From the IMG/VR virus record IMGVR_UViG_2718218398_000003: a stretch of 45,775 nucleotides of DNA, one strand, 5' to 3'. The DNA is from a virus. Taxonomy: Duplodnaviria; Heunggongvirae; Uroviricota; Caudoviricetes. The notes beneath the pieces are model-generated. The model had not been told where the DNA came from. It saw nothing but the letters and a program-made list of their open reading frames with translations, and searched no databases. Position 1 is the first letter of the stretch, and the number at the start of each line of letters is the position of its first letter. Positions 1-5,220 of the stretch are shown here, piece after piece. A program made the translations under genes and the position numbers.

Positions 1-249
1 ATGGCGGCAGCACAACCGCTGGTATTTGATGCAGAACTGGACACCGTGCGTGGGCGTCTTGGTAGCGTAAAAGGCGTTAATTACGATACGGCGATGTGGA
101 GTTCGGCAATTAACAGCCGCAACAACGTGACCACTGATGCAGGCGCTGGCTTTGAGCAAACATTGACGGGGCTAACGCTTGGTATCGACAGCCGTTTCTC
201 CCGTGAAGAAAGCAGCACAACTCAGGCGGGTGTGGTCTGGACGTTCTGA
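1..249 (+). CDS. C-terminal fragment of an autotransporter-type outer membrane protein (5' end outside window); host flank
   Basis: ORF runs in from the window edge and ends ...SSTTQAGVVWTF*, the aromatic-terminal beta-barrel signature of type V autotransporters. It lies outside the prophage boundary marked by the tRNA-Pro fragment. From memory the E. coli proL neighbourhood has an autotransporter gene (yejO); not verified. Confidence 0.5.
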   Translation: MAAAQPLVFDAELDTVRGRLGSVKGVNYDTAMWSSAINSRNNVTTDAGAGFEQTLTGLTLGIDSRFSREESSTTQAGVVWTF

Positions 250-350
250 TAACAGAAAATAAACAGGCCGTGATGTGTCGCGGTCTGTTTATCGAATTAA
301 ATGCAGATATAAAAAAACCAACCGCAATAGGTTGGTTTTCTTGGGATTTT

Positions 351-396
351 TGGTCGGCACGAGAGGATTTGAACCTCCGACCCCCGACACCCCATG
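351..396 (-). other. tRNA-Pro 3' fragment (anticodon loop to CCA, 46 nt); probable prophage attachment core (attL)
   Basis: Reverse complement reads CATGGGGTGTCGGGGGTCGGAGGTTCAAATCCTCTCGTGCCGACCA, with T-loop GGTTCAAATCC, 3' acceptor strand and CCA, matching my recollection of E. coli tRNA-Pro(GGG). The upstream 30 nt (397-427) do not supply a complementary 5' acceptor strand (CGGCACG) or a D-arm, so this is not a complete tRNA gene. Confidence 0.7.
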
Positions 397-611
397 TCAC
401 CGCGCCTGAAACGCTGGAGACCGCGCCATTGCTGGGCTGGCAGGGTGTTTCACTGTGTGCGCAAACAGTGCATAATTCGCAAAATTCACGCTATATACAT
501 CAATGAGTTAAGAGAGATTTTTCCCCACTCCTAAATGGTCAGTTTTTGGAGCATTACTATATTAATAGGTTCCGTCTATAGCACTTTTTGATTTGCTTCT
601 AATATGCTTTT

Positions 612-638
612 CTGTGGATAAGATTTAGTTATCCACAG
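612..638. promoter_or_regulatory. perfect inverted pair of consensus DnaA-box 9-mers (TGTGGATAA / TTATCCACA)
   Basis: CTGTGGATAA-gatttag-TTATCCACAG: 10-bp perfect inverted repeat whose arms are the consensus DnaA box, in an AT-rich region about 200 bp upstream of the 835 ORF. Confidence 0.5.
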
Positions 639-834
639 ACTTATCTCCTAAGTTTCCGAGCAGCTACATGTTTTTTGTTGATTGTTTTATGTTTGGCGTA
701 AAGTCAACAATTACTTCGCTTTTTGACCATTTTAGCCCATTGGAAATTACGATCATCTTCATGTAACCTTCTAAAACTTACTAAGATTGCAGAAGTTAAA
801 GCAACATAGCTCGTAGTTTCTTAAAGGTGATTTA

Positions 835-1602
835 ATGCCACAGCCGGCGCTAAAAGCGAACGAAATCAGCAGTGAATTAATCGATATTCTTGCGGCTCGG
901 AATACGATATCCGAAATGCAATATTTTCGTTATATCAGAGATATAGAAAAGTTGCGCGACAGCGCATCTGAGGACTATCTCAAAGCGTTGGCTAATGGTG
1001 CTTTTGGGCGTAAAGATACTGCAGTTGCATTCTTTGAAGAAGCATTGAAGCATAACAACCTGATCATTGCTCAAAATTATGTAGTTTATCTCAACGATTA
1101 CGGCAGCTTCCGTGAAGTTGAACAAGTGGTAAATCGATTAGTTGAACGTTATAACTCCCCTACGATGCTGTCCCATGCATGGGAAGCTAACTTGTTCTTG
1201 GGGCGTATTGACAAAGCGCTCTACTATGCTGAGAGATTGATAAGTATGGTAGATGAAAAGGAGGCTGAATTGGTTAAGCACCTCGCAGCCACAGCACTGG
1301 CCCAATCCACGACCTTCAAAAGTGCAACTGGAATTACTGATGAAGAACTACAGGATATTGCAAACCGCATAGTGGATATCATGGCTGACCATAAAGTTAG
1401 TCCTGTTGCTATGTCTTTCTGCTCTATCCCTGAAGAGCGTACGTCATCATATGTCATGGCAGTTAATACTGAAGATTCTGATGTTCTCTCTGATATGAAC
1501 TTGGATATAGCATTTTCTCTTGCAGAAAATGAAAGTTTGATTGGAAAACCCTTCAGCGTATGGTTTGAAGGGCGTTTGGAGGAACCTGCGCGTGCCAGTT
1601 AA
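835..1602 (+). CDS. hypothetical protein (255 aa), first gene of att-proximal cargo operon
   Basis: ATG preceded by AGGTGA at 5-nt spacing; 255 codons; predicted mostly helical; no recognised motif; AT-rich relative to phage core. Confidence 0.55.
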   Translation: MPQPALKANEISSELIDILAARNTISEMQYFRYIRDIEKLRDSASEDYLKALANGAFGRKDTAVAFFEEALKHNNLIIAQNYVVYLNDYGSFREVEQVVNRLVERYNSPTMLSHAWEANLFLGRIDKALYYAERLISMVDEKEAELVKHLAATALAQSTTFKSATGITDEELQDIANRIVDIMADHKVSPVAMSFCSIPEERTSSYVMAVNTEDSDVLSDMNLDIAFSLAENESLIGKPFSVWFEGRLEEPARAS

Positions 1603-1975
1603 TAGTTCCGATTTTATCGCTTTCGCAAAAGATTGTGAAAAGCGTAACGACGAAATTGGTTACAGAAACGCTGTCGCACGTGCGTATTATGGTGCTTATC
1701 ACCACGTACTTCCGTGTTTGACCATGGGGCCGAAAGAAAGTCACCAAGGCCTCATTGACTATCTTGTTAACGATGCTTGGAAGGGTAACGAACCTTTTGA
1801 AAAAAGAGACTTAATTGGTTTGGGGTATGCTCTTCAATCGCTTAAGGATCAGAGAATAGTTTGTGATTACAGACTTAACGACACTATTACGCCAACCCAA
1901 TCAAGCACCGCGATTAAGACTGCAGAGAAATTAATCCAGCGTTGCGCTAATATGACCAAGTCTAAAGCGTCCTAA
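1592..1975 (+). CDS. HEPN-like small protein (about 127 aa), second gene of cargo operon
   Basis: Track ORF 1541..1975 begins at a TTG; an in-frame GTG at 1592 with GGAGG 9 nt upstream overlaps the stop of the upstream gene (1600-1602) and is the more likely start. Sequence ...YRNAVARAYYGAYHHVLPCLTMGPKESHQGLIDYL... resembles classical HEPN-domain signatures (recalled, not searched). Confidence 0.5.
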   Translation: MPVNSSDFIAFAKDCEKRNDEIGYRNAVARAYYGAYHHVLPCLTMGPKESHQGLIDYLVNDAWKGNEPFEKRDLIGLGYALQSLKDQRIVCDYRLNDTITPTQSSTAIKTAEKLIQRCANMTKSKAS

Positions 1976-1980
1976 TCCCC

Positions 1981-2008
1981 AAAATTGGCCTCATTTGAGG
2001 CCAATTTT
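1981..2008. terminator. bidirectional intrinsic terminator
   Basis: AAAA-TTGGCCTCA-tt-TGAGGCCAA-TTTT: perfect 9-bp stem flanked by A and T runs, directly after the stop of the 1975 ORF. Confidence 0.8.
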
Positions 2009-2044
2009 ATTATGCATTGTATTTAATTTCACCGTGCGGAAGCA

Positions 2045-2400
2045 TTACCCAATCATATGGTTCCGCGTATAAATTTTCGTTGATTTCGCGTCGCTGTGGG
2101 CTATGAGCCCTTGTGGTCTACTCCCTGTTTATCAAACAAAATGCAGCTAGTGCGCGTATTTTGTGGAATGTGGGGGCGCAGCTCCATCGTCAAATTATTA
2201 CACAAGCCTAACGAATCACGGGGCAATGAAAAGTATGGCTAAGATAGGCAGGTGCGGATACCTCTTTACTGCGTTTGTTATTACGCTCGGTATACGGTGA
2301 ACGATATACGGGCAGGCAACGTTATCGCGACTGTTATCAATAATACGTTTCAGTTTGTCCTCGAACTACATCACAACCGGCTTGAAAACTAATTACTGGA
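2045..2400 (-). pseudogene. 3' remnant of a tyrosine integrase gene (paralogous to the intact int at 3553-4737)
   Basis: Minus-strand translation ending at stop 2045-2047 gives ...QGLIAHSDAKSTKIYTRNHMIG*, clearly homologous to the intact integrase C-terminus ...QGRMAHSDAKSTKIYTKNHIDW...; nucleotide similarity to 3560-3950 continues to about 2400. No intact ORF of 60 aa or more is listed here, so it is degraded. Confidence 0.65.
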
Positions 2401-2458
2401 TTTTGTGCCTCCATAATCATATGATTTAAAATGTTATTTTATAAAAAAGGAGTTGTAT

Positions 2459-3415
2459 ATGACCAATTTGTATAAGTTTATGGGAGCGGATATAATTGAT
2501 AAATTGATGATGGATGAAACACATATAGGAATAAAATTCTCTCATTTACATGAATATAATGATCCCTATGAGTTTTTCCTTACTATTGATTTTAATCGCG
2601 GTTCTGATGAGTTAGCATTTTACAATGAAATGATTGGCATGGTTACAAAACAACCAGCAACTTGTTTTACGAAAAGCCCTGTGATACCACCTATGTGGGC
2701 ACATTATGCAGGTAATTCTTCTGGTTTTGTAATAGAGATTAATGAGGAGAAGTTTAAAAAGTATTTGGATGAAATCGGCTTCCAGGATCATAGTTCAATA
2801 GCAGATGTTGAATATAAAGATTCTCCAGATACAGGTATTGAAGACATTCTGGCGAGAGCATTTCATATCTGTAAACCTCGTTATATCTACTGGCTACAAT
2901 CCTGTATAATGACAGCCGCATATTTGACAAAACAAACTTGCTGGAGTTATGAGCAGGAACGTCGCGTAATAATTAATGAGAAAGCACTTACTAAACTGAA
3001 TGACAATCTTATGCTCCTTCCGGTACCGATTAATTGTATAACTGGAGTTATAGTTGGGCACAAATCAAATGATTTATTAAAGCAGAAAATTCAATCTTTA
3101 GCTAAAAAGGCTAAATGTAGATATTTCGAAATGGTAATAGGAAAAACAACAACTACACCATTTCTTTTATCTCAAAATCTCAAATCACACCAATTTATTA
3201 ATGGCAATATAATACCTGCATCAAGGCAATGTAAAAAATGTTATGAGCCTTTAAACATGGAAAATAAAGTTTGTGGCTGGTGTGGAATTACTAATCATGA
3301 TGTGAAAATGGCAGAGTACCGTAATTCATTTCGAATGATAGCCAACTATGGTGGGCTGGATAAATATATATCATCCATGAATAAGATTACTGAAGAGTAT
3401 AATAAGGGTAAATAA
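2459..3415 (+). CDS. DUF2971-like protein with C-terminal CxxC...CxxC zinc ribbon (318 aa)
   Basis: ATG at 2459 with AAGGAG 6 nt upstream (track start 2453 is a TTG). N-terminal ...LYKFMGADIIDKLMMDETHIGIKFSHLHEYNDPYEFF... and later ...PMWAHYAGNSSGFVIEI... and ...CWSYEQERRVI... fit my recollection of the DUF2971 family; C-terminus has CKKCYEPLNMENKVCGWCG. Very AT-rich. Confidence 0.6.
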   Translation: MTNLYKFMGADIIDKLMMDETHIGIKFSHLHEYNDPYEFFLTIDFNRGSDELAFYNEMIGMVTKQPATCFTKSPVIPPMWAHYAGNSSGFVIEINEEKFKKYLDEIGFQDHSSIADVEYKDSPDTGIEDILARAFHICKPRYIYWLQSCIMTAAYLTKQTCWSYEQERRVIINEKALTKLNDNLMLLPVPINCITGVIVGHKSNDLLKQKIQSLAKKAKCRYFEMVIGKTTTTPFLLSQNLKSHQFINGNIIPASRQCKKCYEPLNMENKVCGWCGITNHDVKMAEYRNSFRMIANYGGLDKYISSMNKITEEYNKGK

Positions 3416-3552
3416 ATTTTATTAATAAATATTGCTTTCTGGACAAGGGAGAAGTTATGGTAAATGGGCATAGAACTGCCTTTTAAATTAAGCTTTACTC
3501 TATGCCTTAGCAACCGTTATTGTCAGTCAAAATAAAGTGGAGAATTTAATAA

Positions 3553-4737
3553 CTAACCGGTTTTAATTTCTCCATGAGGGACAACAATCCAATCTATATG
3601 ATTTTTAGTATAAATTTTAGTAGATTTCGCATCGCTATGTGCCATTCGTCCCTGCGGATCAATCCCTTGTTTATCAAATAGGTGAGCTGCCAAAGCTCTT
3701 ATTTCATGGAATGTAGGTCTTTGTTCCATTGCTAGATGATTGCATAGTCCGAGTTTGTCTCGCACGGAAGAGAATGACCGACTCAAATAATCTGGTGCAA
3801 CTTGAGTTGGGTGCGAAACCTCTTTACTGCGTTTAACATGCCGTTCTGGGATTCTATGAACGACAAAGGGACTGGCCACATTGTCACGGCTATTGTCAAT
3901 TATCCGTTTCAATTCTTCACCAATTGGTATTGCAACATGTGATGCCTCCTTTTTTTGTACTTTTTGCCTATGGATGTATAGTGTACCATATATGCCATTT
4001 TGTGGTTGTTCGAACCAAACACATCCACATAAACCGTCTTTAGGTTCGCGAATTGAGTAACGGATTCGCGATACTTCGAGTCGTGCATGTGTAGTCTGCA
4101 ATGCTAGGTCCATTGCTGTTCTTAACCATGGTGCAGCGGCCTGCCTGATAGCTATAAAATGCTCGAGTGACAGGCGCCGTCTTTTCTTCTCATCAGTCCT
4201 ACGCATTTTTTTTCTGATGGCCGGGTTATCCTGCATTAGTGATTCATCGACCGCATAAGAGAACAACTTTTTAAGAAAGCTGACCTTTCTGTTCTGCACA
4301 TTTGCGGATGCGCTGGCATGATATTTGTTGATGTAGGCATTAACGTGTTCAAGTTCGATATCGCATGCCGGAACATTTACGAAAAACGCTTTTACGCGTA
4401 GAGCGTCATTTTTCCAGTCATCTAAGGTACTCTGGGAAGGTCGTTCGTCTTCGATAATTCTGGCCATTATGTGATCGACATGTTCAGCAAATGGTTTTGC
4501 TTCTCCGGTGACCCCGCCAGATTCTCTAATAAGATTATCCACTGATGGGTATAATTCTGATCGCATCCTCAGGTTGTACTCTCTGGCGATTGCAACGGCT
4601 ATTGCCCGATCCTTACCTATATTTTTCTTTTTTCCGGTAATAAGTGTGAATTTATAAACACCTCGATCTTTATCAAAAACCAGATAATCAGGAAGATGTC
4701 TGTATTCTTTTTTACGTGGCCTTGCCGCCATGGTCAT
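3553..4737 (-). CDS. int: tyrosine site-specific integrase
   Basis: 394 aa; C-terminal catalytic region with ...HEIRALAAHLF...RMAHSDAKSTKIY... (conserved H, R and Tyr nucleophile of lambda-family integrases); adjacent to excisionase. Confidence 0.93.
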   Translation of the reverse strand: MTMAARPRKKEYRHLPDYLVFDKDRGVYKFTLITGKKKNIGKDRAIAVAIAREYNLRMRSELYPSVDNLIRESGGVTGEAKPFAEHVDHIMARIIEDERPSQSTLDDWKNDALRVKAFFVNVPACDIELEHVNAYINKYHASASANVQNRKVSFLKKLFSYAVDESLMQDNPAIRKKMRRTDEKKRRRLSLEHFIAIRQAAAPWLRTAMDLALQTTHARLEVSRIRYSIREPKDGLCGCVWFEQPQNGIYGTLYIHRQKVQKKEASHVAIPIGEELKRIIDNSRDNVASPFVVHRIPERHVKRSKEVSHPTQVAPDYLSRSFSSVRDKLGLCNHLAMEQRPTFHEIRALAAHLFDKQGIDPQGRMAHSDAKSTKIYTKNHIDWIVVPHGEIKTG

Positions 4738-4943
4738 CCCTCATTTATTAACTTGCGAACAGCTTGACTAACCATTGAGTCGACTCCCCATTTTTCTGTT
4801 TCGCAGACAAAAACAGAACCGTCCACGATACGCCCCATGAGCAGACCGTTCTCGACCCAGCGTTTTATCGTTCGGTTGTCAGGAATTGAGCCATTAGAGA
4901 ATTCACGGCGTCCCCATTGGCTCGCTTTCATTAGTTTTGCCAT
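4734..4943 (-). CDS. xis: excisionase (Xis/AlpA-like)
   Basis: Small basic protein ...RTIKRWVENGLLMGRIVDGSVFV... directly upstream of and overlapping int. Start placed at internal ATG (MAKLMKASQW) with GGAG 8 nt upstream; track ORF extends to 4988. Confidence 0.7.
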   Translation of the reverse strand: MAKLMKASQWGRREFSNGSIPDNRTIKRWVENGLLMGRIVDGSVFVCETEKWGVDSMVSQAVRKLINEG

Positions 4944-5004
4944 GGCTGTTTCTCCACTTAACCCGCTGCACACGGGCAGTAATATCAAATTTCAGTCCTG
5001 ATAA

Positions 5005-5220
5005 TTAATTTTGTTCTCTGGTTGCTACCTGTTTAATTGGCCTGATGCTGTCCAGGAGCAGTCGGCGGCGCGTATTTTCTGCAAAGTGGCGGCGTCCGGT
5101 TTCTTTGTGGTAAAACTCGTTTTCTCCGACGACCCACATCCGCTTTGTCTGGTGCAGTTTTTTTACCTGCGGACCGTTTCGGGTAATAACAATTCCTGTA
5201 TGAGTTTTTATCACGCTCAT
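5005..5220 (-). CDS. small hypothetical phage protein (71 aa)
   Basis: ORF in the early-left operon, same strand as neighbours, abutting the downstream gene; no recognised motif. Confidence 0.45.
   Translation of the reverse strand: MSVIKTHTGIVITRNGPQVKKLHQTKRMWVVGENEFYHKETGRRHFAENTRRRLLLDSIRPIKQVATREQN

Follow-up and report, generated by a model that had tools for sequence, protein, structure and literature searches.

A two-gene operon located close to one end of an Escherichia coli prophage raises the question of whether its small downstream protein is a HEPN effector, and of what its larger upstream partner does. HEPN nucleases often serve as effectors in bacterial immunity and in toxin-antitoxin systems. 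The operon was analysed within a stretch of 45,775 nucleotides of E. coli chromosome, which is called the window here, and the two genes are called A and B. An earlier note made from this sequence had described the second protein as HEPN-like, its partner as lacking a minimal nucleotidyltransferase, and the pairing as possibly new. In the literature and databases searched, the obligate pairing of A with B, the restriction of the pair to phages and its function are undescribed.

Operon structure and prophage setting

Positions 1–249 of the window correspond to the 3' end of yejO. The homology to the chromosome stops at position 396, and the matched tRNA-Pro locus is present in nearly all E. coli genomes. 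No complete tRNA was detected in the window using ARAGORN. The intact tRNA-Pro of a collinear genome is located about 46 kb downstream, beyond a complete lambdoid siphovirus-type prophage. According to the end of the chromosomal match and the distant intact tRNA-Pro, a prophage that is integrated in tRNA-Pro has its left end at base 397, and the duplicated segment before this base is the att core. The A-B operon is located about 440 bp inside this lambdoid prophage, measured from the att core. The features of the region are listed in Table 1.

Table 1. Features of the att-proximal region, in window coordinates.
Feature	Position	Strand	Basis
att core, duplicated 3' part of tRNA-Pro	350–396	−	47-nt match under annotated tRNA-Pro
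Perfect dyad TCTGTGGATAA-N7-TTATCCACAGA, candidate operator	611–639		11-bp arms, 7-nt spacer
Gene A, 255-aa acidic protein, proposed regulator/inhibitor/sensor	835–1602	+	ORF; PGAP WP_001136067.1
Shine-Dalgarno sequence of gene B (GGAGGA), within the 3' end of gene A	1578–1583	+	Read from the sequence; 8 nt before GTG 1592
Gene B, 127-aa HEPN protein, proposed RNase effector	1592–1975	+	ORF; PGAP WP_001145023.1
Bidirectional intrinsic terminator hairpin closing the operon	1981–2008	both	12-bp stem; A and T runs on the flanks
Decayed integrase C-terminal fragment (C-terminal third)	about 2010–2410	−	PGAP pseudogene; frameshifts and stops
DUF2971 gene, candidate defence gene	2453–3415	+	Pfam DUF2971 1.8e-9; PADLOC PDC-S31 4e-22
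Intact tyrosine integrase of the prophage	3553–4737	−	Orthologues directly after B in Pseudocitrobacter and Enterobacter

Genes A and B overlap by 11 nt. The GTG at 1592, which had been chosen as the best start of B, agrees with the PGAP annotation; a Shine-Dalgarno sequence is present upstream of it, and all homologues begin at the aligned methionine. A and B are real genes and not chance open reading frames, as homologues are found in Enterobacterales, in an Aeromonadaceae metagenome-assembled genome (MAG) and in metagenomes, and the structural models of both proteins are confident. The hairpin that closes the operon had been read as a bidirectional terminator, and the folding energies agree with this reading. 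The hairpin folds with −17.5 kcal/mol on the plus strand and −18.3 kcal/mol on the minus strand (z-scores of −4.8 and −4.4), and none of 200 shuffled sequences folds as well. A simple terminator scanner did not call this hairpin. The Rfam search of window 1–5200 at a permissive threshold gave just two sub-threshold chance matches, and a repeat search in 380–2460 found no repeat array like that of a type III RNA antitoxin.

The earlier note placed the operon between the att core and the integrase. The location is right, but the intact integrase is not adjacent to the operon, because an integrase remnant and the DUF2971 gene intervene. The remnant shows 39% identity to residues 257–381 of the intact Int using tblastn. 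In Pseudocitrobacter and Enterobacter, A and B are followed by an intact orthologue of the integrase (87% and 78% identity to the window Int, respectively). In E. coli CFT073, the order is the att-side chromosome, A, B and then an unrelated integrase. According to these gene orders, the arrangement att-A-B-int looks ancestral. The present order suggests that recombination within int placed the DUF2971 gene between B and int, leaving the int fragment. The DUF2971 protein has a zinc-ribbon-like segment at its C-terminus. In the accessible part of the DefensePredictor supplement, this protein (WP_000183538.1) is a predicted defence gene, and another DUF2971 protein is validated as DS-45.

The tRNA-Pro site is used by another element in E. 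coli FORC_042 (L001, 1–7353). In this strain, a P4-like satellite occupies the same att site immediately ahead of the A-B operon, and the two elements are integrated in tandem. The satellite has an integrase of its own, and also genes for a RepA-family helicase, capsid and terminase.

Upstream of A, each arm of the dyad at 611–639 contains the DnaA-box consensus TTATCCACA. The identical dyad is present upstream of A in Enterobacter, and in Pseudocitrobacter the dyad is altered in both arms together (TTGTTAATAA / TTATTAACAA). Two box pairs are found upstream of A in the Yersinia prophage, in which the cassette occupies a different slot. The CFT073 copy has three one-mismatch DnaA boxes in this region. 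Boxes upstream of A are also found in two metagenome loci, as two perfect copies in a remote locus and as one copy with one mismatch in the other. The density of box-like 9-mers is 2.6 per kb upstream of A versus 0.35 per kb across the loci, an enrichment of about 7-fold. The dyad looks like a putative operator that moves with the cassette.

The HEPN protein B and its partner A

The HEPN assignment of the second protein is correct at the family level, according to the profile match, the confident model and the HEPN structures among the top fold matches. In the HMM search, the window B alone scores 13.2 bits against the Pfam HEPN profile (PF05168), which is under the cut-off of 22 bits, whereas the relatives and the family profile match HEPN. 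PF05168 is matched by 25 of the 32 relatives of B, and two of them are above the cut-off (P0048 with 25.1 bits and the Aeromonadaceae homologue with 23.6 bits). When the family profile of 22 diverse relatives was compared with the solved structures, the HEPN structure 9xbd (9.4e-11) and the UPF0332 protein AF0298 (2hsb; 1.5e-6) were matched. The model of B has a pLDDT of 91.6 and shows the HEPN fold with six helices. Using this model in Foldseek, nine of the ten best matches are HEPN structures. The top match is 2hsb, with a TM score of 0.71, and the best ten also include 2q00, the sacsin HEPN domain, Csm6, TT1696, ST0689, MntA-HepT and AbiV. The two motifs quoted in the earlier note are the UPF0332 signature. 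In UniRef, A is already named 'Tetratricopeptide repeat protein' and B 'HEPN domain-containing protein'. Thus, the domain calls for A and B are not new.

The canonical Rx4-6H motif is absent from B, and no relative has a histidine 5–7 residues past Arg88. The motif region reads Arg88-Ile-Val-Cys-Asp92-Tyr93 (R-x3-D-Y). Nine residues (Glu21, Arg25, Tyr32, Tyr33, His37, His51, Arg88, Asp92 and Tyr93) are identical in all 22 aligned relatives, down to 30% identity. In the model, His51 starts the helix after the loop of residues 43–50. Anantharaman et al. defined the AF0298-type HEPN-T proteins by an aspartate in place of the motif histidine and a second conserved histidine between helices 2 and 3, and this variant was proposed as an alternative active site (PMC3710099). 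Asp92 and His51 of B are invariant in 22 of the 22 relatives, as in the AF0298 definition, and B therefore belongs to the AF0298/UPF0332-like branch of HEPN-T. As B has no canonical Rx4-6H motif, we can only infer an RNase activity, and with the canonical catalytic histidine missing B could bind rather than cleave. In the literature searched, a demonstrated activity was not found for the AF0298/UPF0332 branch or for the present family.

The closest solved relatives of B are 9xbd and 9xbc. Their aligned regions differ solely in having Tyr or Phe at the position of Tyr93 of B, and this pair hints that the matching tyrosine is under study. A paper on 9xbd was not found in the literature searched.

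The structure of the 255-aa partner A was also predicted with confidence (pLDDT 91.9). About ten helices are formed by residues 1–165, and a helix, a β-hairpin, a helix and a strand follow in residues 169–246. A consists of a TPR-like helical array (about 1–165), with tandem helix-turn-helix repeats of the TPR type, and a small α/β domain (about 169–246) of three strands and two helices. In Pfam, the TPR matches of the window protein are sub-threshold, and only TPR families are matched across 69 relatives. The exhaustive profile search for A gave 158 cluster representatives; most of them are full-length proteins of 242–292 aa, and they have a single architecture. A is acidic (pI 4.7), and its C-terminal domain is more so, with a pI of 4.1 and a net charge of −12. 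B is basic (pI 8.3).

The motif of a minimal nucleotidyltransferase is absent from A, as the earlier note had stated, and so is the fold. A divergent nucleotidyltransferase was also considered and was rejected, since fold, motif and conserved polar residues are all missing. No polar residue is conserved at more than 80% across the 69 relatives of A, which argues against an enzyme. The search for a DNA-binding domain in A (HTH, RHH and AbrB-type) gave no match. The profile of the C-terminal domain shows no credible relative among the solved structures, with low-complexity artefacts only.

Linkage, distribution and divergence of the pair

A homologue of A is located directly upstream of a homologue of B in every one of about 20 distinct loci sampled. 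These loci are from Yersinia, Serratia, Pectobacterium, Xenorhabdus, Pseudocitrobacter, Enterobacter, Mixta, the Aeromonadaceae MAG, five metagenome contexts reached via remote relatives of A or B, two Klebsiella phages and E. coli CFT073. Outside the window, the overlap of the two genes reaches 20 nt at most, and where they do not overlap the gap is no longer than 12 nt. The linkage holds even for relatives of A at about 20% identity. A genome scan with a narrower alignment of A gave five loci only.

The slot of the pair differs among the prophages. The pair is located between att and int in the present E. coli prophage, CFT073, Pseudocitrobacter and Enterobacter, between the antiterminator Q gene and the lysis genes in Yersinia and Serratia, just before the tail genes in Xenorhabdus, and after the lysis genes in another locus. 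A role of the pair as integration machinery was rejected, because the pair is also found far from att and int. In NZ_CP115361.1, which carries the same prophage (L029, 4002–5541; roughly 16.6–18.2 kb of the window), three hypothetical genes on the opposite strand separate the antiterminator Q gene from the DNA methyltransferase and lysis genes. This stretch is the slot of A-B in the Yersinia and Serratia prophages, and thus may hold another accessory cassette.

Four sequenced phages carry the module according to the protein-level search, and a megablast search of 50,697 phage records with the operon gave nothing. The B family has no match among 72,556 plasmids. The exact operon is present in 73 of the 5,426 complete E. 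coli genomes, and the number is 98 (about 2%) when the divergent copy is included. The divergent A-B pair of CFT073 (L028, 5201–6389) is flanked by the glaH side of the chromosome and by the unrelated integrase, which belongs to another prophage. Copies similar to it were found in about 44 further E. coli genomes. The CFT073 proteins show identities of 35% (A) and 62% (B) to the window proteins, and the Yersinia proteins show 38% (A) and 64% (B). Judged from sequence identity, A diverges at about twice the rate of B. A and B each fall into PHROG families of unknown function, and the NCBIfam search gave nothing useful.

Relation to known systems and proposed function

B resembles the AF0298/UPF0332 HEPN-T proteins (PF05168; 2hsb and 9xbd) in the fold, the RAYYA-x-YH motif, the histidine before helix 3 and the R-x3-D-Y motif. 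Those proteins are typically standalone, or are fused to or located beside a minimal nucleotidyltransferase, whereas B is always paired with a TPR-like protein of 245–275 aa and is found in phages and prophages only. The invariant Glu21 and Arg25 and the near-invariant Asn26 are specific to the B family. The earlier suggestion of a new pairing holds for the AF0298/UPF0332 branch, but not for HEPN proteins in general, as partners of the TPR or Sel1 type are already known from other HEPN families (PMC3710099). LA2681 and AbiU2 are combined with such a partner, fused or in the same operon, as in the case of A-B (PMC3710099, Table 1). Thus, the novelty of the pairing is limited to the HEPN branch of B. 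LA2681 and AbiU2 retain the Rx4-6H motif, which B does not, and the additional acidic α/β domain of A is not described for them. Membership of B in the LA2681, AbiU2, AbiV, ApeA or pEK499_p136 HEPN families was rejected, as none of those Pfam models match.

The HEPN-MNT type VII system (HepT/MntA) also has a small HEPN effector beside a dedicated controller, and a tyrosine adjoins the motif in both cases. The motif is Rx4HxY in HEPN-MNT and R-x3-D-Y in B, and the control is AMPylation in the former and presumably binding in the latter. As the nucleotidyltransferase is absent, A-B is not a HEPN-MNT type VII system. AbiV of Lactococcus is a HEPN abortive-infection effector with a weak fold match to B (TM score of about 0.4), and AbiV and the AF0298 branch share the alternative conserved histidine (PMC3710099). 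AbiV has about 200 aa and a reported Rx4-6H motif and is reportedly inhibited by an RNA, whereas B has a protein partner. In RnlA-RnlB and LsoA-LsoB, a HEPN nuclease of phage defence is neutralized by direct protein binding, according to the accessible part of PMC8266594. Unlike in A-B, the toxin RnlA is a large multidomain protein with the canonical motif, and the gene of its small antitoxin follows downstream; no sequence relationship of these pairs to A or B was detected. HepS of the prophage Gifsy-1 and Tha of S. aureus prophages are HEPN effectors that are carried in accessory slots of prophages and protect the lysogen. HepS is described as partnerless and with the canonical motif, whereas the A-B module has an obligate partner. 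By sequence, A-B is none of AbiV, RnlAB, HepS, ApeA, LA2681 and AbiU2.

Searches against collections of defence systems were also performed. PADLOC v2 gave no match to A or B of the window. The PADLOC model HEPN_IX weakly matches 7 of the 22 relatives of B (3.4e-5 at best), and the relatives of A show scattered single matches only. WP_001136067.1 and WP_001145023.1 are not present in the accessible part of the DefensePredictor supplement. The HEPN-containing two-gene system DS-28 in that part was rejected as a match, because its partner is unrelated and its motif is the canonical RNSVAH.

On the whole, we lean towards a toxin-antitoxin-like module of temperate phages that probably acts in abortive infection, in which B is the predicted RNA-cutting effector and A is a stoichiometric, non-enzymatic inhibitor and possibly a sensor. 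This reading is preferred because B shows effector-like conservation, its acidic, repeat-containing partner evolves fast, and the two genes are translationally coupled. It is also preferred because of the moron-like mobility of the pair, its restriction to phages and its defence-type neighbours. Those neighbours are DUF2971/PDC-S31 in the window and an ApeA-like HEPN protein in Serratia, which are anecdotal observations from a few loci. Prophage-encoded HEPN defence has a precedent in HepS (PMC13043305), and AbiV is likewise cited as a precedent.

According to the proposed mechanism, the role of the module in the prophage would be abortive infection or defence against superinfection. As the genes overlap, A and B would be made in fixed proportion from one transcript. 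A would keep B inactive through direct binding, probably via its strongly acidic C-terminal domain, and the TPR-like array would probably provide the surface on which a phage or host protein docks or is sensed. The arrival of this protein would release or activate B, which would then act as the effector, probably by cutting RNA. The predicted active site consists of Arg88 and the upstream His51, with Arg25, His37, Asp92 and Tyr93, in place of the Rx4-6H pair.

Alternatively, B might have the HEPN fold but no catalytic activity, and bind a nucleotide, RNA or protein. The A-B complex would then have a phage function that is not toxic, for example in the control of phage development or as a trait of lysogenic conversion. 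The missing Rx4-6H histidine speaks for this reading. Some HEPN families are indeed non-catalytic binders (PMC3710099), and in Yersinia and Serratia the pair between Q and the lysis genes could be read in the late transcript. However, the nine invariant polar or aromatic residues, with two histidines and two arginines, are better explained by an active site than by a scaffold, the residue pattern of B is that of the proposed alternative active site of AF0298, and the variable position within prophages argues against a core developmental role. We thus regard an inactive B as unlikely. The plain addiction module, which would kill cells that lose the prophage and so stabilize it with no role against other phages, draws on the layout of the pair. 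As in type II toxin-antitoxin systems, two small, co-transcribed genes overlap, the acidic presumed antitoxin is encoded first and the basic protein downstream is small; the pair is also located at the prophage edge, on the integrase side. Against this, the plasmids searched, where addiction modules are common, gave no match to the B family. A, with 255 aa and a TPR array, is far larger than a typical labile antitoxin, and it has no recognisable DNA-binding domain, in contrast to most type II antitoxins, in which such a domain autoregulates the operon. Plain addiction is quite unlikely on these grounds. Some prophage toxin-antitoxin pairs also defend, so that the addiction and defence roles are not exclusive.

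A third kind of control would be type VII-like, with A covalently modifying B, for example on the invariant Tyr93. In HEPN-MNT systems, the AMPylation site is a tyrosine in the motif region, and Tyr93 of B immediately follows R-x3-D. MNT antitoxins AMPylate HEPN toxins, according to the accessible part of PMC11586414, and the Tyr/Phe difference between 9xbd and 9xbc is at this very position. Nevertheless, A shows no nucleotidyltransferase fold or motif, its family conserves no polar residue above 80%, and its C-terminal domain has just three strands and two helices, with no credible solved relative in the profile comparison. Covalent modification by A is therefore extremely improbable.

The toxin-antitoxin-like reading can be worded more specifically, and this version is tentative. 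The pair would be a phage-restricted abortive-infection system in which a TPR-type sensor with an acidic plug domain directly gates a non-canonical HEPN RNase with an arginine and a distal histidine, and the DnaA-box-like sites may link its expression to the replication initiator of the host. If true, the AF0298/UPF0332 HEPN branch would thereby gain its first assigned function and trigger logic. The A-B module is a tractable E. coli example of this branch with an obligate non-enzymatic partner. It could reveal whether the alternative Arg/His site catalyses, and could show how a repeat protein substitutes for nucleotidyl transfer in the control of a HEPN protein. If the module is anti-phage, it is a further type of cargo in the hotspots that temperate phages have at att-integrase and Q-lysis.
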